From Candidatus Kaiserbacteria bacterium (lineage in GTDB: Bacteria > Patescibacteriota > Minisyncoccia > Phycocordibacterales > UBA2100), in contig JACPLC010000005.1 in the NCBI GenBank assembly GCA_016186695.1, positions 852 to 64,851 on the forward strand: DNA of 64,000 bases. The letters run 5' to 3'. Shown here piece by piece: positions 40,592 to 62,664 of the stretch (its first letter is position 1; every line of letters starts with the position of its first letter). Position numbers and translations under genes: made by a program. The notes under the pieces are model-generated. The model saw only the letters and a list, made by a program, of their open reading frames with translations, did not search any database and had not been told where the DNA came from.

Positions 40592-40663
40592 TCCGGGGTA
40601 ACTCAATGGTAGAGTGACTCCCTGTTAAGGAGTAAGTTGTGGGTTCGAGTCCCACCCCCGGAG
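40592..40663 (+). tRNA. tRNA-Asn (GUU); integration target of an island
   Basis: Acceptor TCCGGGG/CCCCGGA, anticodon loop CTGTTAA, T-arm GTGGGTTCGAGTCCCAC. Confidence 0.85.
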
Positions 40664-42147
40664 CTAGGTGAGACAGCAGACAGTTTACGGATAGTGTCAT
40701 ACGGTTTTCGCAAGGCAAACCGTAGCTCTTTTCCTTTCACTGTCGAGTTCTGAAGTAAGTACGCTAGAATCTCCCGTTTTTCATCCGGTTCAGAACTTCC
40801 GAAGATTTCTCCGAAGCGTTTGGAGATGCTCAGCAGCGTCCCAACATGGATGTGATAGCGATGGTCGGCCTTCGTGTGTTGCTCCATCTCCGCATTCAGT
40901 CGATCCTGCGACTCCTTCAGTTCTCGTAATTTATTATCATACTCATCGGTGGTAATACTCCCGTCCAGTCGAAGGTCCAGTAGGCTTTGTATTCGCTTTT
41001 GGGCCTTGTCGTACTCCGCACGTATGCGTTTAACCTCGCGCTCGTAGAACACCGCCTCGCTATCGTGGCTCTGACGAAGTTCGGTTACCAACCGTTCGTG
41101 CACTTGGTCCGGGACGTTTTCGAATTCCTTGAAAAGCGCGTGGAGCGGTTTCAGGAGGTCCTCTTCCGACGTATATACTCGCTTGCAAATACCTTTCGCA
41201 TTCGTGCAGGAGTAGTAGATGTACTTGCCCTTCTTCAGTTCGGGGCTCATGAGACAGCCGCAATCTTCGCAGCGAAGTATTCCTTTCAGGGCAAACGGCT
41301 TCGAGAGTATTTTCGAACGCTTGTCGCCCCTGCCTTCACAGACGTCCCGGCATCTTTCGAACAGTTCTTGAGATATCAGACGTGCATATTTGTGCTTGTG
41401 TTCTCCGTGCTTCCTCGATTGCGCGAAACCGATGTAGAAGCGATCCTTCAGAATTCGCTCTACATTGCTACGCGACAACTTCTGGCCTTTGAGCCCTCGT
41501 AGGCCGAGCTTGGTTATCTCTATCCAGAGTGCGCGAATCGAATACGAACCTGAGGCATATAGCTCGAAAAGCTTCACGATCAGATGGGCGCGCTTCGGAT
41601 CCGGAACGATATCATTCAAGATAACTTTTCCTTCGGCATCCTTTTTCTTATCACGGATGTATCCGATCGGCGGGTGTCCGGTGAATTCTCCATTACGGCG
41701 CTTATGCTCGAACGTGCGCTTTACGTTGTCGCTCAACTGCAAGATATACGCATGTGCCATGAGTACTCCCATCTCCCAGCGGATGATGTCCGCGCTGTTG
41801 GAATGCCTGTGTATGACCAGATTCTCGCGGTAGAAGTGAATCTCGACCTTGCCCTCTTTCACTAACTCGTCCAAGTACACCATGTCCTTGAATGAACGCA
41901 TGAGGCGGTCGATCGTATCGAACACGACCGCCATACATTCGTTGGTGCGTTCCCCCTCTTTCACCACGCTTTCTAATGCCTCCCTGAACCGCTTACGCTC
42001 TCCACGAGTGGACGATTCTTCGATCTTGTAAGTCTTCCAATGCTCGAGACCTCCTTTTTGCTTCACGTAGTCCGAGACTCGCATGATTTGAGCTTCGTTC
42101 GAATCTTGCTCTTTGTCGGAAACGCGAGCGATGATTGCAGATTTCAT
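40603..42147 (-). mobile_element. Large serine recombinase (integrase)
   Basis: N-terminal resolvase domain with catalytic Ser (IIARVSDKEQ), a Cys-cluster zinc ribbon (CEDCGC...CTNAKGIC) and a coiled coil. The last 61 nt of the ORF are antisense to tRNA-Asn. Confidence 0.85.
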
Positions 42148-42160
42148 ATATTTGTTATTG

Positions 42161-43282
42161 TTATTTTACTCTAATTTTCCTCTTAATTTTCCCCAGCAGG
42201 CGGACGGGTTTGTACGCCCGCAGCTGAGCGTTCATCTCCTCGTACCATTCTTCGGGCCGCAACCCCACGAGGGCGGCACCTATGCTACGCAGGCTTTTCA
42301 CGAGGCTGTACCACGTCGCTACGCGCCTTTTGGAGAGCGCGAGCGTGTTTCTTAGTCCTCCCATACCGCCTTCGTCTTGCGCGAGAGCCAGCAGCCCCAC
42401 GAGGCGAATCGCGTGTGCGACCCCTATACCCCGTCGGGCAAGCATGATGTCGCGCAGCAACGCTTGCGGTCCCGTTCGACGCGAGAAAAGTATCGCGTCA
42501 TCTCTGTTCGCGAGCTTCTCCCAGTAATGAAGAATGACCGCCTTACTCACTTTTAACGAGAATGCTTTCCTGAACGTGAAAGCATCACCGTGGCCCACAC
42601 TCACGAGCAGTCGGCGTAGCTTCTCTTTTCTTGTCAGCCGCACCTCGAATCTCACGATGCTATCTTCCTGAGATAACACCTCCATCGTTTCTTCGTCGAG
42701 CTCTCGCTCAAGTTCCGCGAGCTTGTCGTACACCGAAATCATGTGCGACTTCGTGTACCACTGCACTCCCGTTCCGTCGTTCGAATACTTCACGTTCGTC
42801 TGCTCGATGCGTCGGTTGGCGTTGATTTTCGCCAATTGACCGATGACATGAGAAGCCGAATGCACTCTTTTTAGGATGACGTTCTTCGAGTAGTGGATCT
42901 TGGCTATCTCCGCTTGTCGCAGACATACGTCGGAGACCTCTACCCCCATCCTCGAAACCCGATCCTGCAGAAGCGCAATCACCGTCTCGAAATGACGTTC
43001 CGTCAGCTCGTCGAGATTGTGACCAAAGACGAGCTTCGGAGCGGAGAACTGGACATGCATGAACGAGATGCTCTTACCGTCGCGCCACGACACGTATCCC
43101 GTAAGGAGCGGAAAATACATACCTCGCGCCACATCCTCCGGAGGCGCATCCTTGACGTATCTTCCATAACCGCGCCCGGTAGCGCGGAACTCCCATCCCT
43201 CCCACTCACGACTGCCATCGCACTTGATCCTCCTCGGCAGTGTCGCTTGCATGGGAATAGTCATGACCACCGTGTCGATCAT
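42161..43282 (-). CDS. Rep_trans-like rolling-circle replication initiation protein (putative)
   Basis: Motifs SVYDK and VRFEVRLTRKE resemble the RstA/RepC FYDK ... RFELE signature; 373 aa. Confidence 0.5.
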   Translation of the reverse strand: MIDTVVMTIPMQATLPRRIKCDGSREWEGWEFRATGRGYGRYVKDAPPEDVARGMYFPLLTGYVSWRDGKSISFMHVQFSAPKLVFGHNLDELTERHFETVIALLQDRVSRMGVEVSDVCLRQAEIAKIHYSKNVILKRVHSASHVIGQLAKINANRRIEQTNVKYSNDGTGVQWYTKSHMISVYDKLAELERELDEETMEVLSQEDSIVRFEVRLTRKEKLRRLLVSVGHGDAFTFRKAFSLKVSKAVILHYWEKLANRDDAILFSRRTGPQALLRDIMLARRGIGVAHAIRLVGLLALAQDEGGMGGLRNTLALSKRRVATWYSLVKSLRSIGAALVGLRPEEWYEEMNAQLRAYKPVRLLGKIKRKIRVK

Positions 43283-43527
43283 GGATCTTGGTTCGGAACT
43301 TCACCCGCATAGAGGTGCGGATTTTCTCGCTTGTCGATCCGTAGGAGGAGAGCGTACAGGCCGACGATATTGCTCTTCGATTCGAAGTCCTCGAAGATTT
43401 CATTTACGATCCGTTCGATGGATGAGTCGTTTTCTTTCTCTTTCATCTGATAATCGATGCTTGCGCGACAGTCGGATAGGACGGGCTCGACGGTCCCATC
43501 GCGCGTTCTAATGAGCTCACGAAGCAA
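43279..43527 (-). CDS. Hypothetical small protein translationally coupled to rep
   Basis: 82 aa; overlaps the rep start by 4 nt. Confidence 0.35.
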   Translation of the reverse strand: MLRELIRTRDGTVEPVLSDCRASIDYQMKEKENDSSIERIVNEIFEDFESKSNIVGLYALLLRIDKRENPHLYAGEVPNQDP

Positions 43528-44153
43528 TCTCCGCTAGCCAACCTCCGTCCGCAAAATGCGCGACGTGAAGTGTTTTGTATAAAAACAAAACGCCCCAGCT
43601 TATGAAGGGTCGTGTACCGAGCGCTTGGCTCAGTCAGCGACCTCTCATCACCTGGAGGCGTTTCCTTCGCTTGGGATCAAATGCAAGTGATCCGGCGACT
43701 ATCGACTTTGAATCATCCTCTAAACATCGATAGCGTAAACGTGGCTTACACCACGGCGAGAACGATTTGTCCTCGCGGCATTGTCTCGAAAACGAGACGA
43801 TCAAACAGGTATCGCGATTACGCGATACAAAGATCTATCCAACTGTTATTAATTATACACTATTCGTAGCCGAAAATCCAGCCCCAATATCCACAGAGGT
43901 GAACCAACAATCCTTTCTGTTTTCTGGAATCGCAGGAACAAAAGTTTTTATCAGAGAAGAACTTGGCTCGCGCACCGGTATCGTATTGTAGCTTTTTAGC
44001 CTTGTATGGGACCCGTAAACGACCCCCAGACCCGTTCCGGAATTCCACCGATGCGAAGTAAAAACTGAATGTTTTGAAGGACTAATTAGGGGACACCAAA
44101 GTTCTTGCTCGTCGCAATGGTCGGGTGACGAGAGTGTTAACCATGTCATAACC

Positions 44154-44720
44154 ATGAACACATACGGAAAGCGTACGTCATACCCGATACGTAAGATCGC
44201 CGTGCGAAGCAGCGTGCAAGACAAGAAGCATCCACTTCGCGAGGTGATCGAGAAATGTATCGGCACTCACGATCTTCGCGTAGTAGTCGAGGAAGATTTC
44301 TCCACGATAAGCGCCATGAAGCGCGACGACGTCGTAGCCTTCATTTGCAGCATCGTGCGGGAGGGAAAAGTTCTATCGCAAGGACGGGGTAGCGTAATTC
44401 TCCCCTCCAGCGGTCGATTTCTGACTCGGAGTGTGCATTCGGCGTTCAATTCGTCCATCGCGGATGCCGCAATCCGGGCCACGAAGGTGCTGGACACCTT
44501 TCGCTGCGGAAACGAGACGAATACTGTCAGCCCCATTGGCGAGGCGTACAGAGCGAAAGAGGACGAAGAGTCTGCTCCTGCAACGGACAGGCAAAAATCC
44601 TACTTGCGCGAGCTCATCCAAATCAACCTCGACGAAGATGAGCGTGAGAAGTGGGAATCGCAGCTTGGAGAGCTCACCAAGCAAGAAGCGTCTCGCATGA
44701 TCGCTTCATTCCAGCGATAG
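44154..44720 (+). CDS. Hypothetical protein (island cargo)
   Basis: 188-aa ORF. Confidence 0.35.
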   Translation: MNTYGKRTSYPIRKIAVRSSVQDKKHPLREVIEKCIGTHDLRVVVEEDFSTISAMKRDDVVAFICSIVREGKVLSQGRGSVILPSSGRFLTRSVHSAFNSSIADAAIRATKVLDTFRCGNETNTVSPIGEAYRAKEDEESAPATDRQKSYLRELIQINLDEDEREKWESQLGELTKQEASRMIASFQR

Positions 44721-44774
44721 TCACGTACTACTAGGCGGTGGCTCTATTGAGCCGCCGCCTGGTGTGCGATTTTA

Positions 44775-44996
44775 TCACTTCACGAAGTAGGAAATGCTCT
44801 TGCCGTACATCCGGGCGAATCGCTTTAGCTCCACTACATCCACCCGTTGCTGCCCCGACTCCACGTTGGAGACGTGCGACTGCGGACGATTGAGCTTCTT
44901 TGCGACCTGTACCTGCGTAAGGCCGGCATCAAGACGGGCCTTCCGAAGACGTTCGACGAAATAAGCGTACTCCTTGGTGTGAATAGACTTCTTCAT
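44775..44996 (-). CDS. XRE-family HTH transcriptional regulator
   Basis: LTQVQVAKKLNRPQSHVSNVESGQQ is a classic Cro/CI HTH. Confidence 0.8.
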   Translation of the reverse strand: MKKSIHTKEYAYFVERLRKARLDAGLTQVQVAKKLNRPQSHVSNVESGQQRVDVVELKRFARMYGKSISYFVK

Positions 44997-45089
44997 AGAG
45001 CAAAGGCTCTATCCAAGAAGCCGATATCCAAAATCCTGATATTATGCTAGGCTCTATCAGCTCGCTTTTTACCAAAAAAATACACTTGT

Positions 45090-45344
45090 ATGTTCAAAAT
45101 AGTCGTGATTATTGCAGATATCGTATTGGGCGGTCTCATGTTGCTCAACCTCATTTTCGATGGTGCGCCAGCCTACTTCGACGCAAAAGACGTGTTTATC
45201 ATCACGGCTCTGCTCTTCGTGAACGTCGCTGCACTGTTCTGGAACTACGAGGCCAAAGATTTGATCACCTTGTATTTCCGACGGAAAGCGTTGGAACAGC
45301 AGAAGAAAATCGACGACCTCAAAGGGTCATCACAAGCGATATGA
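45090..45344 (+). CDS. Small membrane protein
   Basis: Two TM helices. Translationally coupled (ATGA) to the next ORF. Confidence 0.45.
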   Translation: MFKIVVIIADIVLGGLMLLNLIFDGAPAYFDAKDVFIITALLFVNVAALFWNYEAKDLITLYFRRKALEQQKKIDDLKGSSQAI

Positions 45345-45817
45345 GCGACGCGGTCGACGACAGTACACGATGGAGGAGGAACATACTCTGGGCTCTGGGT
45401 TTACTCGCTGCAGTGGTAATCGTCACGTTCTCATACGGTCTTGCAGAGTACTTTGTGCTCGACCGTATCGCACCTCATTTCCCCCACTACACGGACGAGG
45501 ACACAGCGAGAATATTCGGCCCGCTGTATGGTTACGATTCGGACATCACACAGTACGCGGCGCATCCGCTGGCAGTCGCGATCAATTCCACAATCGACGC
45601 AATGCGAGATGATGTGGAGACGCGGTCAAAAGCCCTTCTCGACGACGTGTATTCTGTCATGGAGACCATCCTGATTTTCTTGGCCGGCGTATTCGCCATT
45701 CTTGCGATTCGCTCGTCAGATTCGTCAAAGCGACGCTATATCGCCCTTATGTTAACAGTTCTTTCGGGCGTCGCACTCGTCGTCTGGATAGCCACAACGC
45801 TTAGTAAGGTATTATGA
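45341..45817 (+). CDS. Membrane protein
   Basis: Internal start at MSDAVDD. TM helices at both ends. Confidence 0.4.
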   Translation: MSDAVDDSTRWRRNILWALGLLAAVVIVTFSYGLAEYFVLDRIAPHFPHYTDEDTARIFGPLYGYDSDITQYAAHPLAVAINSTIDAMRDDVETRSKALLDDVYSVMETILIFLAGVFAILAIRSSDSSKRRYIALMLTVLSGVALVVWIATTLSKVL

Positions 45818-45829
45818 ACCCATTAACCT

Positions 45830-46765
45830 ATGGGACTCGATCCAGCACAGGGGTACAAAACGAGGCGTGGAAAGATGTTAATCGGCACTGCAGAAGATAT
45901 TCTCCGCTCTCCTGCAGCCAAGAGATACAAAGGTAAGATACAGCTCGTTTTCACATCACCACCCTTTCCGTTGAATAGGAAGAAGAAATACGGGAATCAT
46001 CAAGGGGAACGATACGTTGAATGGTTGGGAGATATGGCTCTTTTGTTGAAGGAGTACCTTACAGAGAATGGGTCAATCGTTATGGAGATGGGCAATGCGT
46101 GGCAACCTGGCGCTCCCGTCATGTCCACGTTGGCACTACGCTCGTTACTCGCTTTTCAGGACAAGGCAAATCTTCATCTCTGTCAGCAATTTATATGCTA
46201 TAACCCCGCTCGTTTGCCCGGCCCAGCGCAATGGGTTACGGTGGAGCGGGTTCGAGTAAAGGACTCTTTTACTCACGTTTGGTGGATGTCACCAAACGAG
46301 CGGCCCAAAGCCGATAATCGTCGGGTGTTAAAGGCTTACAGCAAAGCCATGTTGCAGCTGCTTGCCACAAAGAAATACAATGCCGGAAAGCGTCCTTCTG
46401 AGCATTCCATCGGTGCGAAATCGTTTCTGAAAAATAATGAGGGTGCTATTCCATCGAACGTCTTGACCTTGTCCAACACTCGAACCAACGACCAGTATCA
46501 GCTCTATTGTCGTACACACGGCTTGCAGGTGCATCCCGCTAGGATGCAAATGGATCTCGCAGATTTCTTCATCAAATTTCTGACAGAGCCGGGAGACCTA
46601 GTGTTGGATCCTTTTGCAGGAAGCAACACTACGGGGGCTTCCGCCGAGAGATTGAAACGTCGTTGGATATCGATAGAACCCAATCAAGAGTACGTGAAAG
46701 GTTCATATGGCAGGTTCGCAGAAGAAAACGAAAACAAAAAATATGACGACGCAAAATTTATTTAG
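45830..46765 (+). CDS. Beta-class DNA methyltransferase (N4-cytosine or N6-adenine)
   Basis: Motif IV VFTSPPF at the N-terminus and motif I DPFAGSNTTG near the C-terminus. This is the beta-class order, and SPPF favours m4C. Confidence 0.8.
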   Translation: MGLDPAQGYKTRRGKMLIGTAEDILRSPAAKRYKGKIQLVFTSPPFPLNRKKKYGNHQGERYVEWLGDMALLLKEYLTENGSIVMEMGNAWQPGAPVMSTLALRSLLAFQDKANLHLCQQFICYNPARLPGPAQWVTVERVRVKDSFTHVWWMSPNERPKADNRRVLKAYSKAMLQLLATKKYNAGKRPSEHSIGAKSFLKNNEGAIPSNVLTLSNTRTNDQYQLYCRTHGLQVHPARMQMDLADFFIKFLTEPGDLVLDPFAGSNTTGASAERLKRRWISIEPNQEYVKGSYGRFAEENENKKYDDAKFI

Positions 46766-49034
46766 CATCCTCTTGAAAGCCGACACGTGTGCCGACGTGG
46801 AGGCAGCGATTACTCAATTTGAGAATGAGCACTCTGCTGAATGTACGTGGGTTCCCGTTGGGAAAAAAGATAACAATTCCGGTCCAATCAATATTGCTGC
46901 GGATCCGGGACGTTCCCTTGTGGAGCGTCTAACCAACGCAGTGGACGCCGTTCTCGAACGTGAGCACGAAGTGCGCGGCGGAAGCCCCGTCTGTCGAACA
47001 CCGCGTGAGGCTGCAAGTGCATGGCTGGGTATCCCGTCTGGAGGTCTCAGTGAAATGACGCAGCAGGCTCGGCGTGATCATGCGAATAATGTGATCATTC
47101 GTATCACCGAGGGTGAAGGTAGCAGAGAGGCTCGAACTGTAGAAGTGAGAGATCAAGGAATTGGGATTACGCCCGATCGCGTACCGACTACCATTCTTAG
47201 CTTGAATGAAAGTAATAAATGGCAAAAGCATTATCTTGCCGGAACATTCGGGCAAGGAGGATCGAGTACGTTTGCGGCCTCAGACTACACTCTCATCGCA
47301 AGCCGATACAAGGACGAACCTGTCGTTGGGTTTACTGTGGTGAAGTATCGCGACTTACCCCCAGATCTATTTAAGACTGGCCATTATGTGTATCTCGTTC
47401 TCAACAGCGCAGTGCTTCAGGCGGAGATTCCCGTTGAGGAATTCACTCGCGGCACGTTAGTCAAACATTTCGGCTACGACCTCACTTCGTATTCATCTCC
47501 TTTAGGGCCAAATAGCATATACGGTTTGCTAAACCAAACGCTCTTTGATCCGATTCTACCAATCTGGCTGGATAGCCGAGTACACAACTACCGCCGTGTA
47601 ATCAAAGGCTCTCGTAACGCGCTAAATGGCGCACTCGACGAAGGAGATGAGGGTTCTGGTCCAAAACTGTCACACAGCGCGCGGATGTTCTACATAAATC
47701 TTGGGGAATTCGGACAAATCGGCGTTGAATATTGGGTGTTAGAACGACCGAGTAAACAGGACAAACGTCCGTCGGCGGCATTCGTGAACCCCACGAAACC
47801 AATCATCCTCACTATCAACGGTCAGAACCAAGAAGAGATGTCCGCACTGCTCATACGCAAAAATTCGGAATTGCCCTATCTCTCGCAACGATTGATTTGT
47901 CACGTTGATTGTAATGGCTTGCACGCCGATGCGAAACGCTCGCTCTTTTCCTCCACCCGAGAAGGTGCACGCCGGGGGCTCATACACGACCTCATACAAA
48001 AGGAGATTATTCGCATACTACGCTCGGATGACGAGCTTACCCGTCTCAATGAAGAAGCCCGCAAGCAAGGAGCACAGGAGATGGATCAAAATGCCGTACA
48101 GCAGATGCGAAAAGAAGTCGCCAGAATTCTACAGATGCAGGGAGTAAACGTAGGAGATATCGGCGGCCTTGAAGTATCGACTGGAGATGGGGGAGGGTTA
48201 GATCGACCTCGGAAACCGACTCCGCCACGGCCACCAGTCGTTCCTATACCTCTGAAGGAGCCACCAACGTATATAAAAATACTATGGGATGAGGGAGAGG
48301 AGATTCCTTTTCATCCCGAACAACGGCGGTATATAAGAATCGAAACAGATGCAGAAAGCCGCTATCACAGAGCAAACGCGGAATCATCGCCAACTAACTT
48401 CATTGTGTCTGGAGAAGGCCTCGTATTGAAAGGCACCACGTCGTTGCAGGGAGGCCGCATGCGTGCCGTTTTTGAAGCTTCACCTAACGCTGAAGTCGGC
48501 GAGGGCGGGACAATTCGCGTTGAAATGACACGAAAGGGCCTCCCGACACTTACGGATGAAAGAAAATTCAAATTTGTTGTGCCTCCGCCAGTTCGTCAAA
48601 GCGAAAGCAAGCTTACCTTGCCGCCCTTTAGAGTGCAGCCAGTAGAGGGACCCGAGGATGCTCGGTGGACGGGTTTAGGTTGGCCTGACGACATCAACAT
48701 TCTTGCTTCTTCAGCGGAAATGGAGAATGGCGAACTCGTTATTTATTACTCCACCGTATTTCCTCGCTTCGCTTCCGCAAGAACTGCCTTCGAAAATCGC
48801 GACGCCGCATTGGTTTCGTCGTTCATAAAGCGCTACGAAATCTGGCTCGCAGTTCATTCATTTCTCTGGCATCGAGATCAAAGTACAACAGAGCCCGCTA
48901 ATCAAACGGAAGAGATGATTGCCGCAGCCGAGGCGCATGAGCAGCAAGAACGCTGCCGCATAGCAACCCTCTCCACGCTCTTCGCATCACGTGAGGCAAG
49001 ATTTTCCCAGGCTCCGCTTGAAGAACACGAGTAG
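46743..49034 (+). CDS. Large GHKL-ATPase domain protein (MORC/paraMORC-like), candidate restriction/defence partner of the methyltransferase
   Basis: GHKL N-box (LTNAVDAV), G1 box (VRDQGIGI) and G2 box (GTFGQGGSS) in the first 200 aa, followed by about 550 aa with no recognised family. Overlaps the end of the MTase. Confidence 0.6.
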   Translation: MTTQNLFSILLKADTCADVEAAITQFENEHSAECTWVPVGKKDNNSGPINIAADPGRSLVERLTNAVDAVLEREHEVRGGSPVCRTPREAASAWLGIPSGGLSEMTQQARRDHANNVIIRITEGEGSREARTVEVRDQGIGITPDRVPTTILSLNESNKWQKHYLAGTFGQGGSSTFAASDYTLIASRYKDEPVVGFTVVKYRDLPPDLFKTGHYVYLVLNSAVLQAEIPVEEFTRGTLVKHFGYDLTSYSSPLGPNSIYGLLNQTLFDPILPIWLDSRVHNYRRVIKGSRNALNGALDEGDEGSGPKLSHSARMFYINLGEFGQIGVEYWVLERPSKQDKRPSAAFVNPTKPIILTINGQNQEEMSALLIRKNSELPYLSQRLICHVDCNGLHADAKRSLFSSTREGARRGLIHDLIQKEIIRILRSDDELTRLNEEARKQGAQEMDQNAVQQMRKEVARILQMQGVNVGDIGGLEVSTGDGGGLDRPRKPTPPRPPVVPIPLKEPPTYIKILWDEGEEIPFHPEQRRYIRIETDAESRYHRANAESSPTNFIVSGEGLVLKGTTSLQGGRMRAVFEASPNAEVGEGGTIRVEMTRKGLPTLTDERKFKFVVPPPVRQSESKLTLPPFRVQPVEGPEDARWTGLGWPDDINILASSAEMENGELVIYYSTVFPRFASARTAFENRDAALVSSFIKRYEIWLAVHSFLWHRDQSTTEPANQTEEMIAAAEAHEQQERCRIATLSTLFASREARFSQAPLEEHE

Positions 49035-49035
49035 T

Positions 49036-49710: not shown

Positions 49711-49842
49711 ACGACAACGCGAAGTATCGGTACGACCCCAGCAATCTTTCCGACTGGAAGAAGCTGAAGTTCTAGAGAACACTGCAGAAAAGCCCCGGTT
49801 GTACACCCGGGGCTTCTTGACACCTATGCGCGGTGCTATACT

Positions 49843-50021
49843 CAGTTGATCTCGACGATGGTTGCTCCGCTGGCCCAGTCTTTCACCTTCTGAGCCGACT
49901 GTTTTGCGGCGTAGCGTGTAGTATACGCTTCGCTCACGGCAACAATTTCGCCGTTGCCCGCCTTGAGCCTCCAACGTTCTCCTTTTGCCCGATCTGTGTA
50001 GATCTCAAACTTAGAAGCCAT
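49843..50021 (-). CDS. DUF1508 (YegP-like) small protein
   Basis: 59-aa ORF below the ORF-track length cutoff: MASKFEIYTDRAKGERWRLKAGNGEIVAVSEAYTTRYAAKQSAQKV. Confidence 0.6.
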
Positions 50022-54313: not shown

Positions 54314-54514
54314 GTGATACACTTGCCGTCAATGGCAGAAAAAAACTACCGCATTGAGGATGCAAGGAAACTGCTTGGTGTGAGTGTGAGGTCTATGTAT
54401 CGGTACATCTCCGAAAAGAAGCTTCGGGCGACAAAAATCGGACACTGGCGTATCAGCGAGGCGGACATAAAAAGGTTCATTGCGGAGAGAACAAATATCA
54501 GGAAGCACAAATAA
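54314..54514 (+). CDS. Excisionase-family HTH (HTH_17-like) DNA-binding protein
   Basis: LLGVSVRSMYRYISEKKLRATKIGHWRISEADIKRF. Confidence 0.6.
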   Translation: MIHLPSMAEKNYRIEDARKLLGVSVRSMYRYISEKKLRATKIGHWRISEADIKRFIAERTNIRKHK

Positions 54515-54721: not shown

Positions 54722-56510
54722 ATGGACGATAAGGAAATCGCACAGGAAAAAGAGAGGCAAATATTTCGACTTCAAAAGGAAAACGAAAAGCTAAAGAAAT
54801 CAATCAAGACCCAAAGATACGGGCTTGTTTGGGCGGACGTACCGGAAGCTTTCGATGATGATGTAGAAAACAAACTTCCTATATTTGAGGAAGTATCCAA
54901 GCTCGCAATAAAGAGCAAGGACGAAAAACCAACGCACATTTTGATTGAGGGTGATAACTATCACGCACTTACTTGTTTGAGCTACACACACAAGGGCAAG
55001 ATTGATGTCATTTACATAGACCCCCCCCTATAACACCGGCTCTGATGGTTTCCGCTACAAGGACAAACGTATTCTGGACAGGTATCCCGACGGCACAGAA
55101 GTACCAAAAGACCATCCATTCCGACACAGTTACTGGCTTTCTTTTATGAGCAAGAGGTTGGAACTTGCAAAAAGCTTGCTCAAAAAGAACGGGGCAATTT
55201 TTATTTCAATAAACGAAGATGAGTTCGCTCAACTCAAGCTACTGTGCGACCAAATATTCAATCCGGAAAACTATCTAGCGATGTTTACAATCAAGGTTCG
55301 ACACGAGGAGCGTATCCTCAAAGGCGATAAAGATTTTCACGAAGTTGTGGAGTACTTACTGATGTATCGGGCTAGTTCAGAATATAAAACGGTGAAAAAG
55401 ATTTACGATAACACTTCTCTCGACGAATATGTGTACCAAATAGTCGAAAAGACCAAGAGACCAAAAACAATCAAGCTCGGTAACAAAACCGTGGAGGTAT
55501 TCTCCCCTCAAGAATATGAGGTGGTAAAGGTGTCTTCGAACGCCAACAACCTAAAAAAGATAAACATTCGGGGTTCTATAAAGGAAGGCAACAGTAGTGG
55601 TCGTTTTTATATGGCTTACCTTGAACCGCTCAAAACAAAGGGCGTTTTATACAAAGTGTCCGATATGGGAAATGATAAATTCGGATACCGATATTTCCTC
55701 ACACCGATGAAGTTATCTCGCGTGAATGGTGATTACTTTCAGGGAGTGCCGTTGGGTATAAAGGATACGAAAGAAGTACCGTACCCGAACTATTTTGATT
55801 TTGAAAAGGACTTCAATTCAGTCGGCTATGAGGGTGGCGTTAATTTCGGTGGCGGCAAGAAACCCGTCAATTTTCTCAAGCGCATCATAGGTATCGGCTC
55901 TATGAACAAGTCGGCAGTGGTGCTGGACTTCTTCGCAGGTTCGGGAAGTACAGGAGAAGCGGTGATGAAAATGAACGAAGACGATAAGGGTACTCGCCAG
56001 TTCATTCTCATTACCAATAACTACGAACTCGTAAAAGATAAGGTCTATAAACCAATGGAGGAGGCGTGCTATCCTCGCATAAAAAATGTCATCAAGGGCT
56101 TCAATGGTAACAAAGGGGTTGGAAATTCTGCAAAGTACTACCGCACGGGGTTCGTCGGCAAACACAGTATCGCTGATGCAGATGATAGAGATAAGTTGCA
56201 ACTCGCGCATCACGCAGGAGAGATGCTTTCAGTTGCAGAAAATACACTTGAACTCGTGGAGGAAAATGAATACTGGCAAATCTTTGAGAGTAAAGACCTT
56301 TACACCGCCGTCTACTTTCGGGAGGAATACAACGAGTTTGATGATTTCATTGGTCGAGTTCGGAAGCTAAAAAAACCGGTATCCGTATATGTTTTTAGCT
56401 GGGAGGACGACCCATTCGTCGCGGATTTTGAGGACAATCCAAACATTACAGTAAAGACAATCCCGCAACCAATACTCGAAATCTATAAGCAAATCTATAA
56501 CCTCCTATGA
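54722..56510 (+). CDS. mod: Type III restriction-modification methyltransferase Mod, split by a frameshift at a poly-C tract
   Basis: N-terminal EGDNYHAL, then IYIDPP followed by a run of 8 C, after which YNTGSDGFRYKDKR continues in the +1 frame (ORF 55146-56510). Motif I DFFAGSGSTGEA lies near the C-terminus. With 7 C residues the protein would be a single product of about 596 aa. Confidence 0.8.
55021..55028 (+). repeat. Poly(C)8 homopolymeric tract inside the mod DPPY codons
   Basis: The sequence reads ata gac ccc ccc cta taa, which gives a premature stop. Seven C residues would restore gac ccc ccc tat aac acc (DPPYNT). Confidence 0.85.
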
Positions 56511-58897
56511 CCCTTGCGCCTCTCAAATTCCAAAGAGATGCCGTTGAAAATCTTACAGAGGTTTTTGTAAAGCTATGGAAGAAGACCGAAAGAAAACTAC
56601 CGATAGTGCTCAAATCTCCAACTGGTAGCGGCAAAACATTTATAACCGCCCTTTTAATTCGAGGTCTCAACCATCTACCGCAGTGGTCGGAAGATAAGGC
56701 GTTCATCTGGATTACCTTCAGCGATGAGATTGCAATGCAGAGCAAGGAAAAGTTCGGCAGATATTTTGAGAACAATCTCGAAAATAACACGCTTACCGTA
56801 CAGGACATCAATCGAGGCAAACTGTACGCAAACGATATTCTTTTCCTCAACTGGCAAAAAGTAGTCCAAGACAATGCGACTACCCGTCGTCTCAAATTAC
56901 GACGACCAGACAAGGAGGATGAAAGAAAAGAAAGTGGCAAATACTTTGAGGACTTTATCGAGGGTACTAAAGAAGAAGGACGAGAAATTGTCCTTGTTAT
57001 TGATGAGGCGCACAAGAACGTGGATACCGAGCTAGCACAACATATCGTATCAATGATAGACCCTAAAATTGTGCTTCACGTCTCTGCAACACCAGCTGAC
57101 GGCATAGTTGCAGAAGCCGCAGAACATAATAGCTTCGTTAAAGTAGACCGCGAAGAAGTCGTTGCAGAAGGACTTATCAAAGAGAGTATTGTTTTGCAGT
57201 CCGAAGAAGATTTGAAGAAAATGGGTGGTAAAGACCTTGATGAAGTTCTTCTGCAACTCGGAATAGACAAGCGAGAAACACTCGTAAAGGAGTACAAAAA
57301 ACTCGACAAAAATGTAAATCCTCTAGTTCTTATTCAGCTCCCGAACGACGACACTCGCCTTGTTGAAGCTGGCGAACGAACAAAAGAAGAAGTGGTGATG
57401 TCTTTTCTAGTCAAACAAGGCGTCAAGGAGCACAAAATTGCACGCTGGTTTGACGGGAAAAAGGAAAATATGGAGGGCATTACAGACAATGAAAGTGATG
57501 TCGATTTTATGCTTTTCAAGCAAGCCGCGGGTACGGGCTGGGATTGCCCGCGCGCATCCATTCTCGTGATGTTCAGAGAAATAACCTCAAACACTTTCTA
57601 CAAACAAACGGTCGGTCGCATCTTGCGAATGCCAGAACCACAGTTGAGAGACGATTACAAAAGCAGTCCTCTCCTTCGACGCGGCTACCTCTTCACCAAC
57701 TATCGGCGCAATCAGGTACAGATACCCGACCAAAATGACAACAATAAAGCCCAAACGCAGTCAGCGCACATCCGTTCCGGAGTACAAAACATTTCACTGC
57801 AATCCGACTACATTCCCCGTGTTGATTATGGCGACATTCCGCGCTCCTATAAATTCCAAGAAAGCTTCAGGAAATCGTTTGATGAGCATTTTGGTCTCGC
57901 GAAGGGCGACATACTCGGAAAGGCGCAGGAAAAATTAAAGAGTAAAAAACTTGACCTCGATGGCACTCTTCTGAACGCGATAGTAGCTGACGCCGAGTTT
58001 TCTGACTTCGACCAACTCGCATTCGAATTCGTGAAGAAAGGTAACGATGTTTCTCTTGAAATGTCAGTAAGCGATATTGAAAAGACCTTCAATTACCTCT
58101 GCTATCAGTTGCTCCAAGAACAGGAAGATGAACAGGCAAAATACGCTAACATTGCTCGTTCGTGGAGCGTCTTAAAATCAGCAATCCGTATCTGGTTCAA
58201 GGGCGTGCTGGGAGAAGATAGCTCATATTATTATCGCGTGTTCATCAAGGACATCCAAAAAGGTGCTGAAAGCGTGTTTCGACCTGCAATCACCAAAGCT
58301 CTCCGCGATTTCAAACCCATTGCACAGAAACTTATTGCTGACCGAAAGAAAGAGGTTGAGGAGAGAGAAAGTCCTGTCTTTACTGTTCAGTCAGAATATC
58401 AATACACAGACGACTATCGGGAAGTGCCGCAAAAACTTTGCGTCCTCGATACTTTCTATCTATTGTCTTCATATACTGGGCGCGATAACGAAATGAACTT
58501 CATCAAATACTTGGAGCAAAAGAAAGGAAAAATTGAATGGTGGTTCAAAAATGGCAATCAAGGCAAGGATTACTTCGCTGTTCGGTATATAAATTCGGAG
58601 ACGGGCAAAGAAGAACTATTTTATCCCGACTGGATTGTCCTTTTCAAGGACGGACGTATCGGCATATTTGACACAAAGAAAGGACGTACGGCTACTGATG
58701 CTGACACTGCCGATAAGGCAAGAGCTTTGCAAGCCAAAATAAAAGAATTCGGCAAAAAATATCTCGGCGGTATTGCGATTGAAGAAGCTGGTGTCTGGTA
58801 TTGCAACGATAGCTCCGAATACACATTCAAGGGGGGTCAGTCCGTCAATGACAGCAAGGGCTGGAAACCATTCGAGACGCTTTTTAATTATGTATGA
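56507..58897 (+). CDS. res: Type III restriction enzyme Res subunit (SF2 helicase plus nuclease)
   Basis: Walker A SPTGSGKT, DEAH box VIDEAH and later helicase motifs. ATGA overlap with the mod stop. Confidence 0.85.
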   Translation: MTLAPLKFQRDAVENLTEVFVKLWKKTERKLPIVLKSPTGSGKTFITALLIRGLNHLPQWSEDKAFIWITFSDEIAMQSKEKFGRYFENNLENNTLTVQDINRGKLYANDILFLNWQKVVQDNATTRRLKLRRPDKEDERKESGKYFEDFIEGTKEEGREIVLVIDEAHKNVDTELAQHIVSMIDPKIVLHVSATPADGIVAEAAEHNSFVKVDREEVVAEGLIKESIVLQSEEDLKKMGGKDLDEVLLQLGIDKRETLVKEYKKLDKNVNPLVLIQLPNDDTRLVEAGERTKEEVVMSFLVKQGVKEHKIARWFDGKKENMEGITDNESDVDFMLFKQAAGTGWDCPRASILVMFREITSNTFYKQTVGRILRMPEPQLRDDYKSSPLLRRGYLFTNYRRNQVQIPDQNDNNKAQTQSAHIRSGVQNISLQSDYIPRVDYGDIPRSYKFQESFRKSFDEHFGLAKGDILGKAQEKLKSKKLDLDGTLLNAIVADAEFSDFDQLAFEFVKKGNDVSLEMSVSDIEKTFNYLCYQLLQEQEDEQAKYANIARSWSVLKSAIRIWFKGVLGEDSSYYYRVFIKDIQKGAESVFRPAITKALRDFKPIAQKLIADRKKEVEERESPVFTVQSEYQYTDDYREVPQKLCVLDTFYLLSSYTGRDNEMNFIKYLEQKKGKIEWWFKNGNQGKDYFAVRYINSETGKEELFYPDWIVLFKDGRIGIFDTKKGRTATDADTADKARALQAKIKEFGKKYLGGIAIEEAGVWYCNDSSEYTFKGGQSVNDSKGWKPFETLFNYV

Positions 58898-59343
58898 AAC
58901 TCCTAACGGAAAAATTCGTCCAAGACAACATCATCGAATACCTATTCCGTAAGGGGTGGAGCAGAAATCTGCGGAGTAGGAATACTGACGAGCACGGCGT
59001 AGATATAAAGGTACGGAACAACAATTTTGCACGCTACTGGCTCATCGAGTGCAAGGGCGACGCCTCCAAGACAGCAAAGTATCCCCGCTCTCATCGTGAA
59101 GTATGCTTCAATCTCGCACTTGGACAAATCATCACGCGGATGAAAAGCGACGGGAAACGCGGCTATAAGTACGGGTATAAATATGGTGTCGGTTTCCCCG
59201 CGAGCTTCGAGGATTTGGTCGTCCGGCGCTTGCCGTCCAATGTCGCCGACAAGCTCAATCTTTATGTTTTCCTTGTAGATGGTAAAGGCAAGGTCGCACT
59301 CTATGACTGGAAAATGTTAAGAGTATTGCAATCCTCAAAATGA
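58894..59343 (+). CDS. Small PD-(D/E)xK-like (restriction endonuclease fold) protein
   Basis: GVDIKV ... YWLIECKG fits D ... E-x-K spacing. 149 aa. ATGA overlaps with both res and the OLD gene. Confidence 0.45.
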   Translation: MKLLTEKFVQDNIIEYLFRKGWSRNLRSRNTDEHGVDIKVRNNNFARYWLIECKGDASKTAKYPRSHREVCFNLALGQIITRMKSDGKRGYKYGYKYGVGFPASFEDLVVRRLPSNVADKLNLYVFLVDGKGKVALYDWKMLRVLQSSK

Positions 59344-60989
59344 AAATAACTCGACTGCTCATCAAAAACTTCAAGTCCTTCAAGTCAGAAAGGATAGATT
59401 TTCGCGGTTTGATGGCGTTCATAGGAGAGAACAATGCAGGAAAGTCGAACGTGCTAAAGGCGCTCGATTTGTTCTTCAAGGACACAAAGAAACTCGACGA
59501 GGAGTATTTCAACAACAGCGCAGAGCACATCGTCATTCAAGTTTGGTTCAATAATTTAAACGATGACGCGAAGGAAACATTTAAGAAATATCTGCTCGAT
59601 GACAACGAAACAGTAGTACTTAGAAAAGAGTATTCGTTCCACGACGAAGATATGACGTTTTCGGGCGTCATACTTGGTGATAAGTTAGATGCGAAAGATA
59701 AAAAGGATGCTGTAGAAATTCTCGATAAAACCGAGATAGAACCTTTCACCTCCACGGAAAAGACCTACTACTGGAAATCCAAACCGTTTGGCTGGTCAGC
59801 CATCGCAACCGGATATCTACCCGATTTTCTCTATGTCCCAGCAGTCAAAGACGCAAAAGAGGAGGTAAAAGTTGCAGACAAGTCGAGGTTCGGACAAATC
59901 ATAAATGCAATGCTTGGCAGCGTCCTCCAGAACGTTGATTTAGTACGCATCAACGAAGAGTTTACGAAACTTCTGATGGGTGAAAATTCTAATCAGGATG
60001 GGCGCATCGCGCAACTCAAAGAGTTTGAGACGATGTTGAGTGAAAAACTTTCCGCACAGATGCGTGGTACGACAATCAAGCTAGACATCACTCCACCAAC
60101 ACTGAAAGATGTTTTCCAGTCGGGTACAAAGATACTGGTAGATGATGGTGTCTCCACAGCAGTGGAAAATAAGGGGCACGGGCTACAGAGGTCGGTAATA
60201 TTCGTGATTTTTCGAGCATACGCAGACCTTCTTAAAAAGGAACAAGGCGAGAAAGCAAAAGCGCTCATATTTGGTATAGAAGAACCCGAGCTTTATCTGC
60301 ACCCCCAGATGCAGAGGTCAATGTTCAGCATCCTGAAAGAGGTTGCGCAAACAGACCAAGTAGTATTCACGACACACTCAAGCTTCTTCGTGGATATGGC
60401 TAACTATCAGTCAATAGGTATAGTCGTCAAGAAAGATATCGAGACAGGCACGAAAATCATCCAGCACCAAGAGGATATATTTCCGCAGAGCGAAGAAAAA
60501 AAGCAGTTTCGACTACTCACAGAGTTTGACCCAGAAAGAAGTGAACTTTTCTTTGGGAAGAAAGTTGTGCTAGTCGAGGGAGATACAGAGAAGGTGGTGT
60601 TACCGATTATCGCAACCAAAATCAATCCAAAATATGTCTTCTACGACTACGGTATTACCGTCGTTGAGTGTGCGAGTAAGGAAATGATGCCCTTCTTCGT
60701 GAAAGTGCTCAACGCTTTTCGTATCCCATACACCGCTATCTATGACAGCGACAATGCCAACAGCGAGGAAAGTAAAAGGATAGAAGCAGAGGTTGCATCA
60801 TCTGGCGGTATGGGGCGAACTGAAATCATTGAACCTGACTTTGAGAAAATGTGTGCCGGTGATGGAGTAGCTATACCAACTGGCGGCAGTAAACCCTTTA
60901 AGGCGTTCAAGTGTTTCAAGGAGCTTGAAGCGGAAAAGATACCGAAACGGCTCAGAGAAATCATCGAAAAAATCTTTACCGAAGCATAA
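59340..60989 (+). CDS. OLD-family ATP-dependent nuclease (ABC ATPase plus TOPRIM)
   Basis: Walker A GENNAGKSN, Walker B LIFGIEEPELYLHPQ, H-loop FTTHS and TOPRIM VVLVEGDTEKVVLPII ... YDSDN; 549 aa. Confidence 0.75.
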   Translation: MKITRLLIKNFKSFKSERIDFRGLMAFIGENNAGKSNVLKALDLFFKDTKKLDEEYFNNSAEHIVIQVWFNNLNDDAKETFKKYLLDDNETVVLRKEYSFHDEDMTFSGVILGDKLDAKDKKDAVEILDKTEIEPFTSTEKTYYWKSKPFGWSAIATGYLPDFLYVPAVKDAKEEVKVADKSRFGQIINAMLGSVLQNVDLVRINEEFTKLLMGENSNQDGRIAQLKEFETMLSEKLSAQMRGTTIKLDITPPTLKDVFQSGTKILVDDGVSTAVENKGHGLQRSVIFVIFRAYADLLKKEQGEKAKALIFGIEEPELYLHPQMQRSMFSILKEVAQTDQVVFTTHSSFFVDMANYQSIGIVVKKDIETGTKIIQHQEDIFPQSEEKKQFRLLTEFDPERSELFFGKKVVLVEGDTEKVVLPIIATKINPKYVFYDYGITVVECASKEMMPFFVKVLNAFRIPYTAIYDSDNANSEESKRIEAEVASSGGMGRTEIIEPDFEKMCAGDGVAIPTGGSKPFKAFKCFKELEAEKIPKRLREIIEKIFTEA

Positions 60990-61585
60990 CGTTCTTGAAT
61001 GTAATGTAAGTAGAGTTATGGCACATAGAAGAAGTAAGAAAAGCGAGCCACTCTCGGAGGAGACGATACAAGCACTGATACAACTCGGCGCAGTTTTACG
61101 ACCTGTCGTCAACCGTCTCGTAACCGAGGGAAAGGCGAAAGTAGTGAATGGAAAAATGATTTTCCTCACCAAAAATGCTAACGATTGAAGAAATCAGAGA
61201 CACCCTGCCGGATAGGGGCAAAGACCTGTCCGACGAGCAGCTCTTGAAGCTCCGCGATGATATGTACGGGCTTGCACAGATTTGTTTCGACGTATGGCTA
61301 GCCAAGAAAAATAAAAACGGAGTAAAATCGCAGGATGACGCATCGAACGACCGATGACATACCGGAGGACGAGGAGACCCGCCGCCTGATGCGCGAGCAC
61401 GAGGTGGATGCTGACACTGCCGAGAAAGCGCAGGAGCTTATTGACGAAGGAATGGACGAGGACGAAGCGATTGAACTTGCCGGCGAACTTTGATAGAGTA
61501 CACGCAATGCAACGGAGGAACTTTAGATAGCCGCCCGTAAACAGCCGCACGCCTTGCGGTTGTTTTGGGTGGCTTTTCTATTTTG

Positions 61586-61656
61586 CCTTCGTAGCTCAAC
61601 GGCAGAGCGCACCTCCGAAACGGGCGAGATGGTGGTTCAACTCCACCCGAAGGCAC
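61586..61656 (+). tRNA. tRNA-like gene with a non-canonical anticodon arm, possibly tRNA-Phe (GAA)
   Basis: Perfect acceptor (GCCTTCG/CGAAGGC), D-arm and T-arm (GGTGGTTCAACTCCACC). The anticodon stem has an A:C mismatch and the loop reads CCGAAAC, with C33 in place of U. Confidence 0.5.
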
Positions 61657-61659
61657 ACG

Positions 61660-61732
61660 CCCTCGTAGCTCAATGGACAGAGCGAGACGCTTCTATCGTC
61701 AAGGTTGCAGGTTCAAGTCCTGCCGAGGGCAC
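61660..61732 (+). tRNA. tRNA-Arg (UCU)
   Basis: Acceptor GCCCTCG/CGAGGGC, anticodon loop CTTCTAT, T-arm GCAGGTTCAAGTCCTGC. Confidence 0.8.
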
Positions 61733-62664
61733 TAGCTAATCGCAAACCTCTCCATCGTCTGAAAGACCCGCTCCGATTTCTCTTTCACCGAAGTTTCGTC
61801 GTCATACACGATGAGCATTTCCATCGAGCGGTGGCGGCTGAACTTCCGCACGTCCCGCACATCCATAGTTTTGAGTAGTTCGGTAATGTAGAAGTGCCGG
61901 AAGCCGTGCACTGTTTTCTCAATGCCAAGCTCTTTGCATAGCCCTCCAACCTCTCTTTTTATCGTCATCGTGCTCATCCGCTCGGTCTTCCGGTTGCCCA
62001 AGCTCCTGAACAACGCCCCATCGGTGAGTTTATGGATTTTCAGGTACTCCTTGAGCGCCTTGACCGTCGTCGGTGCGAGATAGATTGCTTCTTTATCATC
62101 CTCGCCCTTGCCCTGAACGTACGCGACCTTCCGGTGCAGTTTTACATCTTCCACGTCCAGCCGGACAATTTCAATCTGCCGTAGCCCTTGAAACGCCAAT
62201 AATGAAAACAGCGCCCGCAGGCGACTGTTTCTCGGCGTGTTTGGGAGATATTTGAGCTTCACGCCAAGCAAAAGTATTTCGTTATCAGTAAGCCCCTGCC
62301 GTCTATGTCTTTTCCTCTGTCTGAAAAACTTTACGCCTTGCACGACGCCAAGTGGTATCATCCCTCGCCGTTCCAACTCTTTGAGCAAGACCCTCGCCGT
62401 CGCAAGATATTTGTTTTTCGTGGACACGCTGTAGTCCGTGCGTTCGAGGTGTCGCTTGAACGACAGCAAGCTCTCCCGATTGAAGCCGTGCGAGTGAACG
62501 TATGAAAGAAAAAGACCTACCCGCGCGGAGTAGTCCTTTCTCGTGGTCTCGGAAACATCAAGACCGTCAAATATCCAGCCGGCGTTTGCCCTCGGCTTAC
62601 GTATGACGCTTGGTAGCTTCATTTTCATATTCGATGTGGACGACACGTAAGCCCTTCTCCTCAA
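61732..62664 (-). mobile_element. Tyrosine recombinase / phage-type integrase abutting the tRNA-Arg 3' end
   Basis: Catalytic C-terminus with R...HGFRHF...LIVYDD. The stop lies next to the tRNA 3' end. The true start is probably an internal Met (MKLPSV) at about 62622. Confidence 0.8.

Follow-up and report, generated by a model that had tools for sequence, protein, structure and literature searches.

Genes for tRNAs are usually seen as targets of tyrosine integrases, and protein-coding genes as those of serine integrases. Among the described systems closest to the locus reported here are the staphylococcal cassette chromosome (SCC) elements (SCCmec, ACME), whose Ccr serine recombinases use the 3' end of rlmH/orfX as insertion site, and the SSV-type archaeal integrases, in which the attachment (att) site attP lies inside the integrase gene and integration splits that gene. 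The stretch analysed in this study, hereafter the window, comprises 64,000 nt of Candidatus Kaiserbacteria bacterium (assembly GCA_016186695.1, contig JACPLC010000005.1, positions 852-64,851, forward strand), and contains a tRNA-Asn gene followed by two integrative elements, element 1 and element 2, each with its own large serine recombinase (LSR1 and LSR2, respectively). A first-pass annotation made from the sequence of the window had proposed tandem accretion of at least two serine-recombinase elements, and two such elements could indeed be delimited. The locus itself is ordinary, consisting of integrated elements with defence cargo at a tRNA; its interest lies in the pattern displayed by the recombinase family. 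In the mycobacteriophage literature, tRNA targets are assigned to tyrosine integrases with cores of 25-76 nt (PMC8092301), a large survey of the targets of large serine recombinases (LSRs) makes no mention of tRNA (PMC10083194), and our literature searches retrieved no paper on serine recombinases with tRNA targets in Patescibacteria, the candidate phyla radiation (CPR).

The host is a relative of Candidatus Kaiserbacteria, and a flanking C39/TPR protein matches Candidatus Kaiserbacteria and other Patescibacteria genomes. The window was extended with a Logan metagenomic contig (L012; L-numbers denote metagenomic or relative loci or contigs, and P-numbers homologous proteins), which is 100% identical to its last 2314 nt and adds 8.3 kb; positions above 64000 are coordinates of this extended contig. 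Proteins were annotated with Pfam, PADLOC, PHROGs and NCBIfam, tRNAs with ARAGORN and other RNAs with Rfam. A relative, L007, whose flank protein is 74% identical, shows a collinear arrangement over the stretch of the window that begins at 28.7 kb and closes with tRNA-Asn. Synteny is regained at ~65.2 kb of the extended contig, where a 399-aa gene, a P-type ATPase, Carb_kinase and DUF2238 are found. Between these two points, L007 holds 1.3 kb with no recombinase and with genes absent from the window; thus, ~24 kb of DNA are extra in the window genome. The foreign DNA most probably runs from 40665 to ~64867 of the extended contig (~24.2 kb) as a tandem array of integrative elements at the tRNA-Asn 3' end; on the right, the island stops ~0.9 kb past the end of the window, not at the tRNA-Phe/tRNA-Arg pair. 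The island integrated at tRNA-Asn that the first-pass annotation had seen is therefore borne out by an island-free relative, in which the same tRNA has no adjoining recombinase and is followed, after 1.3 kb, by syntenic host genes. The finding that would have spoken for an ancestral region, namely relatives carrying the same genes with neither a break in G+C content (GC) nor a recombinase, was not made, since L007 is without the 24 kb.

Composition differs from that of the host in both elements, the gap being modest for element 1: the host flanks have a GC of 54.6% and 55.4%, element 1 of 51.2%, element 2 of 47.0%, and the restriction-modification (RM)/OLD block within the latter of 44.5%. The fall from 58% to 40-48% described earlier was thus overstated, as the host is at ~55%, the region 40.7-51.2 kb at 51%, and only the RM/OLD block reaches 44.5%. 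That the whole region is ancestral host DNA, lost or rearranged in L007, is extremely improbable. Although the empty-site comparison draws on one informative relative, with L008-L011 not collinear at the tRNA-Asn locus, the att repeats bracket the extra DNA exactly, its GC is below that of the host, it consists of recombinases, a replication (Rep) gene and defence genes, and the same element types lie at tRNA genes in many unrelated contigs.

The limits of the elements are given by four junctions (Table 1), all of which share GGAGC. The exact 11-mer ACCCCCGGAGC at 40654, the end of a tRNA-Asn that differs in one base from that of L007, recurs solely at 64868 of the extended contig. There it is followed by CA and by a flank like that downstream of the L007 tRNA-Asn; the two bases after GGAGC are CA in both L007 and this far copy, and TA at attL of element 1. 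As judged from these flanks, the copy at 64868 is the displaced original end of the site, and the predicted attB comprises the tRNA-Asn end plus the CAAACAGG flank. The middle junction, at 51212-51222, falls inside the 3' end of LSR2, where the sequence of LSR2 itself passes into the P-arm sequence of element 1. Contrary to what had been anticipated, the tRNA-Asn 3' segment is not repeated at any length: no repeat of at least 16 nt (at most 1 mismatch) of tRNA-Asn, tRNA-Phe or tRNA-Arg was found in 40-72 kb, a generic repeat finder returned chance-level families only, and the shared core measures 5-11 nt. For serine recombinases, a short att core is expected. No match to the reconstructed attP junction of element 1 (attP1) was found in IMG/VR. 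Between the last two att copies lies a 155-bp spacer of 63% GC (L012 7479-7634, ~0.7-0.9 kb past the window end), in which AAGCCCCCG and CGGGGGCTT flank three short hairpins with TTCG/TCTC loops; the spacer is probably the leftover of an older, third element, or alternatively may be a small structured RNA.

Table 1. Features of the tandem array at the tRNA-Asn gene, with positions in the window or, where indicated, in the extended contig.
Feature	Position	Strand	Evidence or remark
tRNA-Asn(GTT), integration target, intact	40592-40664	+	ARAGORN; Rfam tRNA, 71.8 bits
attL of element 1: core ACCCCCGGAGC, then element DNA TAGGTGAG	40654-40664	+	last 11 nt of tRNA-Asn
LSR1, large serine recombinase, integrated-form open reading frame (ORF) of 514 aa	40603-42147	-	Pfam Resolvase + Recombinase + Zn_ribbon_recom
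Element 1, 10.56 kb, 51.2% GC	40665-51222		att cores 40654-40664 and 51212-51222
Rolling-circle-type Rep (gpII/Phage_CRI-like)	42161-43282	-	PF05144 E=5.5e-7; phrog_702, replication protein
82-aa ORF upstream of Rep	43279-43527	-	tblastx matches in L027, L046-L048, L054, L070, L111
188-aa protein	44154-44720	+	tblastx matches in L032, L035, L111
XRE-type regulator	44775-44996	-	HTH_3/HTH_31; homolog in L111
Cargo: type II N6/N4 DNA methyltransferase, 763-aa GHKL-like protein, S-adenosylmethionine (SAM) methyltransferase (mad2-like)	45875-49710	+	
XRE + ImmA/IrrE (M78) pair	50097-51021	+	HTH_3, Peptidase_M78
LSR2, second large serine recombinase, present ORF of 600 aa	51087-52889	-	Pfam Resolvase + Recombinase
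P arm of element 1, encoding the native C-terminal tail of LSR1 for the circular state	51107-51222	-	
Hybrid junction, attR of element 1/attL of element 2: ACGACCGGAGC, then AGAGCACC	51212-51222	+	9/11 match to tRNA core
Element 2, ~13.5 kb, 47% GC	51223 to ~64711 (extended contig)		ends ~0.7 kb beyond window end
57-aa ORF upstream of LSR2	53326-53499	-	called in L004-L006; tblastx-conserved at the same place in L107, L108
HTH_17 (excisionase/MerR-type) protein	54332-54514	+	PF12728 E=1.7e-14
Type III mod methyltransferase, split	54722-56510	+	PADLOC MTase_III
Type III res helicase-nuclease, intact	56507-58897	+	PF04851; PADLOC REase_III
149-aa protein + OLD-family ATPase-TOPRIM nuclease	58894-60989	+	149-aa ORF conserved in L065
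tRNA-Phe(GAA)	61585-61656	+	ARAGORN, Rfam
tRNA-Arg(TCT)	61659-61732	+	ARAGORN, Rfam
Xer-like tyrosine recombinase	61732-62664	-	PF00589
DUF488 protein + 165-aa protein	62597-63583	-	PF04343, PADLOC PDC-M45B; block conserved in L108-L110
LOOT RNA (RF03000)	63670-63798	-	54 bits (gathering score 46.4)
225-aa gene, 3' end in window, start beyond	63921-64000	-	gene call in L012, L013
attR of element 2: CCACTGGAGC, then CACAAGC	core GGAGC 64707-64711; CTGGAGC 64705-64711 (extended contig)		
Outermost attR: ACCCCCGGAGC, then CAAACAG	64868 (extended contig)		

A different layout had been drawn in the first-pass annotation, with a single ~21-kb island ending at the tRNA-Phe/tRNA-Arg pair and a separate tyrosine-integrase element starting at tRNA-Arg, reading away from the island and running to the right. 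The stop codon of the tyrosine recombinase does abut the 3' end of tRNA-Arg, a common integrase/tRNA arrangement, and GC goes up again at 61 kb. However, the gene is encoded on the minus strand, in the direction of the tRNAs, and neither a tRNA-Asn core nor an L007-like flank is found near 61.5 kb, both being located at 64.87 kb, with the synteny of L007 back only at 65.2 kb. Moreover, tRNA-Arg(TCT) is carried within related serine-recombinase elements, just inside their P end in L041, L046 and L047, and here both tRNAs lie left of attR of element 2 and thus inside the element. Nor was a repeat of the tRNA-Arg end found that could serve the tyrosine recombinase: none of at least 16 nt (at most 1 mismatch) is present, and the best local alignments, of 10-14 nt, fall at irrelevant positions. 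The enzyme is Xer-like (best NCBIfam matches XerA/XerC/XerD, all below cut-off) and belongs to a five-part block, made up of the 225-aa gene, LOOT RNA, the 165-aa gene, DUF488 and the tyrosine recombinase, which recurs in L108-L110 in an LSR2-type element at tRNA-Asn, with no tRNA adjoining the block. Because of this recurrence and the Xer-likeness of the enzyme, the tyrosine recombinase is assigned to element 2 and does not start a new element; indeed, the whole block lies within element 2, and beyond the 225-aa gene come the LSR2 native-tail region and then attR. The ~21-kb layout is accordingly quite unlikely, and the array of two serine-recombinase elements reaching beyond the window is retained.

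Both recombinases match the resolvase catalytic domain PF00239 (LSR1, E=1.7e-12; LSR2, E=1.2e-19) and PF07508. The zinc ribbon PF13408 scores above the cut-off in LSR1 (35.6 bits) and below it in LSR2 (17.4 vs 25.3), in which CxxC...CxxC cysteines are visible despite the sub-threshold score. The residues R8 and S10, the latter being the catalytic serine, are invariant in an alignment of 32 sequences (A2). The two enzymes are 31% identical to each other (BLASTP), and LSR1 is ~24-25% identical to phage enzymes and has no sequence match to any chain in PDB. The same domains (resolvase with serine nucleophile, recombinase, zinc ribbon) make up the phage-type large serine integrases (Bxb1, phiC31, A118, TP901-1), which likewise have a short common att core and no long direct repeats. 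Nevertheless, phage-type enzymes target protein-coding genes or intergenic sites, whereas the target here is the 3' end of a tRNA gene, and, unlike in those systems, attP is placed inside the 3' coding end of the recombinase gene itself.

The overlap of tRNA-Asn by the C-terminus of LSR1, already seen in the first-pass annotation, amounts to 62 nt in antisense, and the last 19 residues of LSR1 are the antisense translation of the tRNA (tail SSGGGTRTHNLLLNRESLYH); all residues encoded left of 40665 are antisense tRNA. Across 31 LSR1 homologs (46-61% identity), sequences are conserved up to '...LRKPFDxVLxLAxxPxxL' and diverge beyond it into three types of end: an (E/G)QDSNLxP tail, which is the antisense of the tRNA T-arm, a short end in which WLRG is followed by the stop codon, and a 'native' end, LDxFRTxxWxxIxxEL... 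When LSR1 at 40665 is joined to the arm at 51222, the frame continues with no indel to a protein of 532 aa ending in SSGRWTHSELSAFKTVDWIIAVRDLQYVPTLSRYMSLA, and this restored tail aligns along its length with ELDGFRTAEWRKALQEIGLIPILSRLVAV, the end of the closest homolog, P0001 (L111). Relative to the attP-like DNA of L111, the window has 16 additional nt behind the FRT codons and is offset by 1 nt at the core, and in our reading of the alignment these shifts together appear to keep the tail in frame; two such compensating frameshifts would suggest that the native tail of element 1 is selected as protein. The present ORF of LSR2 extends into the P arm of element 1, and joining LSR2 at 51223 to the arm at 64711 likewise gives an in-frame protein, of 590 aa and ending in LLQWRYAFRTYDWASIYPEPQFHIENLNRLLSLAV, whose restored tail matches MLTWRDAFRDYEWNKAFPDPEYAVKEMNKLLALV, the end of the LSR2-clade protein P0196. 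Other LSR2 homologs end in LLRG or LLRR before the stop codon or in tRNA-antisense tails. The two independent in-frame restorations, each fitting the right clade, support the limits assigned to the elements.

The same arrangement was found across metagenomes. Among 80 metagenomic loci fetched as LSR1 relatives, in which tRNAs were called with ARAGORN, 41 have a tRNA on the opposite strand that reaches 6-114 nt into the end of the recombinase ORF, the targets being tRNA-Asn in 27, Ser in 4, His in 3, Gln in 2, and Trp, Asp, Ile, Arg and Thr in one each. Tails of the tRNA-antisense or WLRG type terminate ~70% of 120 proteins in each of the LSR1 and LSR2 clades, so that the LSR2 clade shows the same end behaviour as the LSR1 clade. 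Complete relatives contain direct repeats (13-24 nt, the tRNA end included) at a spacing of 9-10.5 kb. The tail types, the overlaps in 41 of the 80 loci and the direct repeats argue that attP lies inside the 3' end of the recombinase gene and mimics the tRNA end; in the WLRG sub-clade, the stop codon lies inside the shared core, and integration therefore changes nothing in the protein. The anatomy of the locus, its repeats, the empty site in the relative, the restored frames and the tRNA-recombinase overlaps seen across the family are computed results. The recombinases belong to a widespread and apparently undescribed family; its targets are the ends of tRNA genes, and the attachment site is embedded in the coding sequence of the recombinase itself.

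Some members of the family were found in unusual settings. In L041 (11464-11815), a group I intron (RF00028, 63 bits) splits the targeted tRNA-Asn, which for this reason was missed by ARAGORN. One LSR1 homolog, P0067 (49% identical), is labelled Candidatus Woesearchaeota archaeon (DPANN), which means either that the element family has spread across domains or that the sequence was binned wrongly. Two GenBank records named 'Bacteriophage sp.', MT836653.1 (L113, 7583-9156) and MT837677.1 (L114, 841-2403), encode recombinases 34% identical to LSR1, whose 3' ends overlap antisense tRNA-Glu and tRNA-Leu, respectively. Both records are unverified, unannotated and derived from human faeces, and look like host fragments with integrated elements rather than phage genomes; the tRNA-overlap arrangement is therefore not confined to groundwater Patescibacteria.

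The chemistry, the order of events, present-day mobility and any function of the tail swap are matters of inference. With attP in the 3' end of the gene of its own recombinase, one arm would imitate the last nucleotides of the tRNA (GGAGC, up to ACCCCCGGAGC), and a circular element recombining with the tRNA end would be inserted while leaving the tRNA intact. Integration would then swap the last 30-40 residues of the recombinase for antisense-tRNA-encoded ones and carry the native tail-coding arm to the far end of the element. As the tRNA end would be regenerated by every insertion, the next element could enter at the same place and shift older ones outward; for this reason, the element nearest the tRNA is taken to be the youngest, and the likely order of entry is a degraded element (the 155-bp remnant) first, element 2 next and element 1 last. 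The enzyme might accordingly exist as two isoforms, with the conserved native tail when circular and a tRNA-antisense tail when integrated, and the tail might act as a built-in sensor biasing integration against excision. It is thus put forward, tentatively, that a large serine-integrase clade in Patescibacteria, with outliers in other metagenomes, uses tRNA ends as attB and the 3' end of its own gene as attP, and produces two isoforms whose tail is a possible sensor of the integration state. The same elements carry tRNA-Arg(TCT) near attP, and some of them carry LOOT RNA.

Several points weigh against this scenario or against the limits on which it is built. For the right-hand att sites, which are situated beyond the window, the evidence comes from a single metagenomic contig, L012, 100% identical to the window where the two overlap. 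Serine integrases cut with a 2-nt stagger at a central dinucleotide, and here the junctions confine the crossover to GGAGC/CCGGAGC within a short shared core; the 155-bp spacer is accounted for only as a probable remnant. As canonical serine integrases normally do not act on an attL-type target, element 1 could have come in next to element 2 only if LSR1 accepts a foreign right half-site, here element-2 DNA; the variability of host flanks across the family suggests that this half-site may be loosely specified. Element 2 is without a recognisable replication gene, and no recombination directionality factor was identified, the HTH_17 protein of element 2 being a candidate. Lastly, no excised circle, empty site or polymorphism in the same population was found among Logan contigs via exact-protein look-ups. 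Same-strain Logan short-read contigs all break inside tRNA-Asn (at 40647 from the left and ~40635 from the right) or inside the tRNA-Phe/Arg pair, the break zones being 40617-40666 and 61535-61686, and base 40617, which differs from the L007 tRNA-Asn, being one break point; because k-mers there are shared with tRNAs of related organisms, these breaks are uninformative on excision and do not reflect polymorphism of the island. No circular contigs, as judged by terminal overlaps, were found among the related loci. In favour of the array, the junction between element 1 and element 2 is contiguous in the independent assemblies L004 and L021.

In functional terms, the SCC/Ccr system is, by analogy, the closest counterpart of the array, and tRNA islands of tyrosine integrases are the closest in target choice. 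As in SCC, a conserved gene would receive circular elements at its 3' end and stay active, and regeneration of the site would give rise to tandem composite islands with repeated short integration-site sequences. In contrast with SCC, the target is a tRNA instead of rlmH, a single recombinase per element takes the place of CcrA/CcrB or CcrC, attP falls within the recombinase gene, the backbone includes a rolling-circle Rep, and the host is a Patescibacterium. With tyrosine-integrase islands, the array shares integration at a tRNA 3' end that is kept, an integrase adjoining the tRNA, tandem arrangement and defence/RM cargo. Nonetheless, the enzyme beside the tRNA is a serine recombinase, the core is 5-24 nt long as against 25-76 nt (PMC8092301), and the sole tyrosine recombinase is Xer-like and internal to element 2. 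An att site in coding sequence and a C-terminus that differs between the integrated and the free form are also features of SSV-type integrases and of integration-dependent immunity in mycobacteriophages, the latter touched on in the same work (PMC8092301); here, however, the gene concerned encodes a serine recombinase, and only its last 30-40 residues would be swapped.

Most of the gene list of the first-pass annotation was confirmed, namely Rep, the XRE genes, the XRE plus ImmA pair, the 600-aa recombinase, the HTH_17 protein, type III mod/res, OLD, and the methyltransferase, GHKL-like and SAM-methyltransferase genes, and its defence cargo is supported by PADLOC matches in both elements. Element 1 has a backbone of the 82-aa ORF, Rep and LSR in the same direction, which recurs in most of the 80 related loci and in L111; the cargo, which fills the space from there to the far end, varies and is often type III RM. 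Its Rep had been described as Rep_trans-like; in fact, PF02486 falls short of its cut-off (16.2 vs 29.6 bits) and PF05144 (Phage_CRI) passes (30 vs 21.7 bits). Compared with Rep_trans/gpII replicons, it shares PF05144 and phrog_702, but fails PF02486, has no match in PLSDB or PDB, is coupled to an integrase and comes with no filamentous morphogenesis genes. In the cargo, the type II methyltransferase matches PF01555 and PADLOC MTase_II (E=2e-88), the SAM methyltransferase matches PADLOC mad2 (E=6e-18), and the 763-aa protein has a weak HATPase_c match and none in PADLOC, NCBIfam or PHROGs. Identification of this module as a MADS system was rejected, since mad2 is the sole mad match and the neighbouring 763-aa protein lacks a PADLOC match. 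The 188-aa protein has no family match in Pfam, PHROGs or NCBIfam.

The gpII-like Rep raises the question of whether one or two degraded prophages, rather than plasmid-like elements, are present. The XRE/ImmA pair is of a kind common in prophages, a TerS-like ORF adjoins the LOOT/tyrosine-recombinase block in L108, and the two related GenBank contigs bear a phage label. On the other hand, searches of both elements with Pfam, PHROGs and NCBIfam revealed no gene for a capsid, tail, terminase, portal or pI/Zot protein, and those with Pfam and PHROGs no other virion, coat or filamentous morphogenesis gene among the ORFs of the two, Rep alone being gpII-like. In addition, the recombinase family is nearly absent from IMG/VR (one distant match only), complete relatives measure just 9-10.5 kb with mostly RM cargo, and the phage-labelled records are unverified fragments with host tRNAs. 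A prophage origin is therefore improbable, and the lack of virion genes, the near-absence from IMG/VR and a Rep unmatched in PLSDB and PDB favour reading element 1 as an integrative rolling-circle plasmid-like element.

In element 2, the 730-bp stretch upstream of LSR2, earlier held to be non-coding, contains the conserved 57-aa ORF, and a 214-aa ORF is also located upstream of LSR2. No Rep pseudogene was detected by tblastn in 52.8-54.4 kb or the rest of the island. The Xis-like protein reported before is present as the HTH_17 match, a candidate directionality factor. In the type III RM system, a C8 tract (55021-55028) in the part of mod that encodes the DPPY motif carries a +1 frameshift, by which mod is broken into ORFs of 103 aa and 454 aa; the frameshift is identical in the window and in the independent contig L004, and the L063 homolog is intact. 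This could be a phase-variable OFF state or decay. The OLD nuclease matches AAA_15 (E=7e-42), OLD-like_TOPRIM (E=3e-17) and PADLOC Old (E=6e-90). The codon AGA is ~2x commoner in element genes than in host genes, and Phe codons are commoner in element 2, codon use that is consistent with element-borne tRNA-Arg(TCT) and tRNA-Phe.

Element 2 could also be composite, a 2.9-kb tyrosine-recombinase module having been inserted between its element-borne tRNA-Arg and its P arm, which is compatible with the tandem-array model. The P-arm tail lies ~100-130 nt from tRNA-Arg(TCT) in L041, L046 and L047 and 2.9 kb from it here, the recombinase stop codon touches the tRNA end, and the block is portable, standing in a different context in L108. 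Nevertheless, direct repeats of the tRNA-Arg end were not found on either side of the block, no tRNA remnant lies beside the homologous recombinase of L108, and the Xer-likeness suits dimer resolution of a circular replicon equally well as integration, so that a composite origin, although possible, is doubtful. The enzyme is perhaps a multimer resolvase.

LOOT RNA is, to our knowledge, an orphan motif known solely from metagenomes, and a literature search on it returned nothing relevant. In L108, it scores 78 bits at the syntenic place (1381-1504, + strand), with a recombinase 56% identical to that of element 2, and the LOOT-containing block (2xx-aa/LOOT/16x-aa/DUF488/Xer-like) is thus found in LSR2-type elements of two unrelated contigs, which provides a genomic context for LOOT. 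The far att site of L107 and L108 falls outside the flanking sequence that was retrieved. Just outside this block, L108 carries an ORF at 1-390 (...AMWYLERKRPQEF...) that presumably resembles a phage small-terminase/HTH protein; some LSR2-type elements may therefore be larger or virus-related. Elsewhere in the window, two 1-kb bins of lower GC stand out in a host region of 53-58% GC, one at 9001-10000 (49.4%), which contains tRNA-Glu, and one at 21001-22000 (46.6%), between tRNA-Ala and tRNA-Arg(CCG).

The locus and its relatives constitute an exception to the usual division of targets, in that a widespread family of serine integrases is found at tRNA 3' ends. The array also illustrates how a defence island can grow in a very small genome, by stacking of elements at one regenerating site, each bringing RM/OLD-type cargo, and it gives the LOOT RNA motif a concrete genomic context. 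We know of few mobile elements and almost no genetic tools in Patescibacteria; small elements (9-13 kb) with predicted att sites, a Rep and a safe site at tRNA-Asn are candidate integration vectors for these bacteria.

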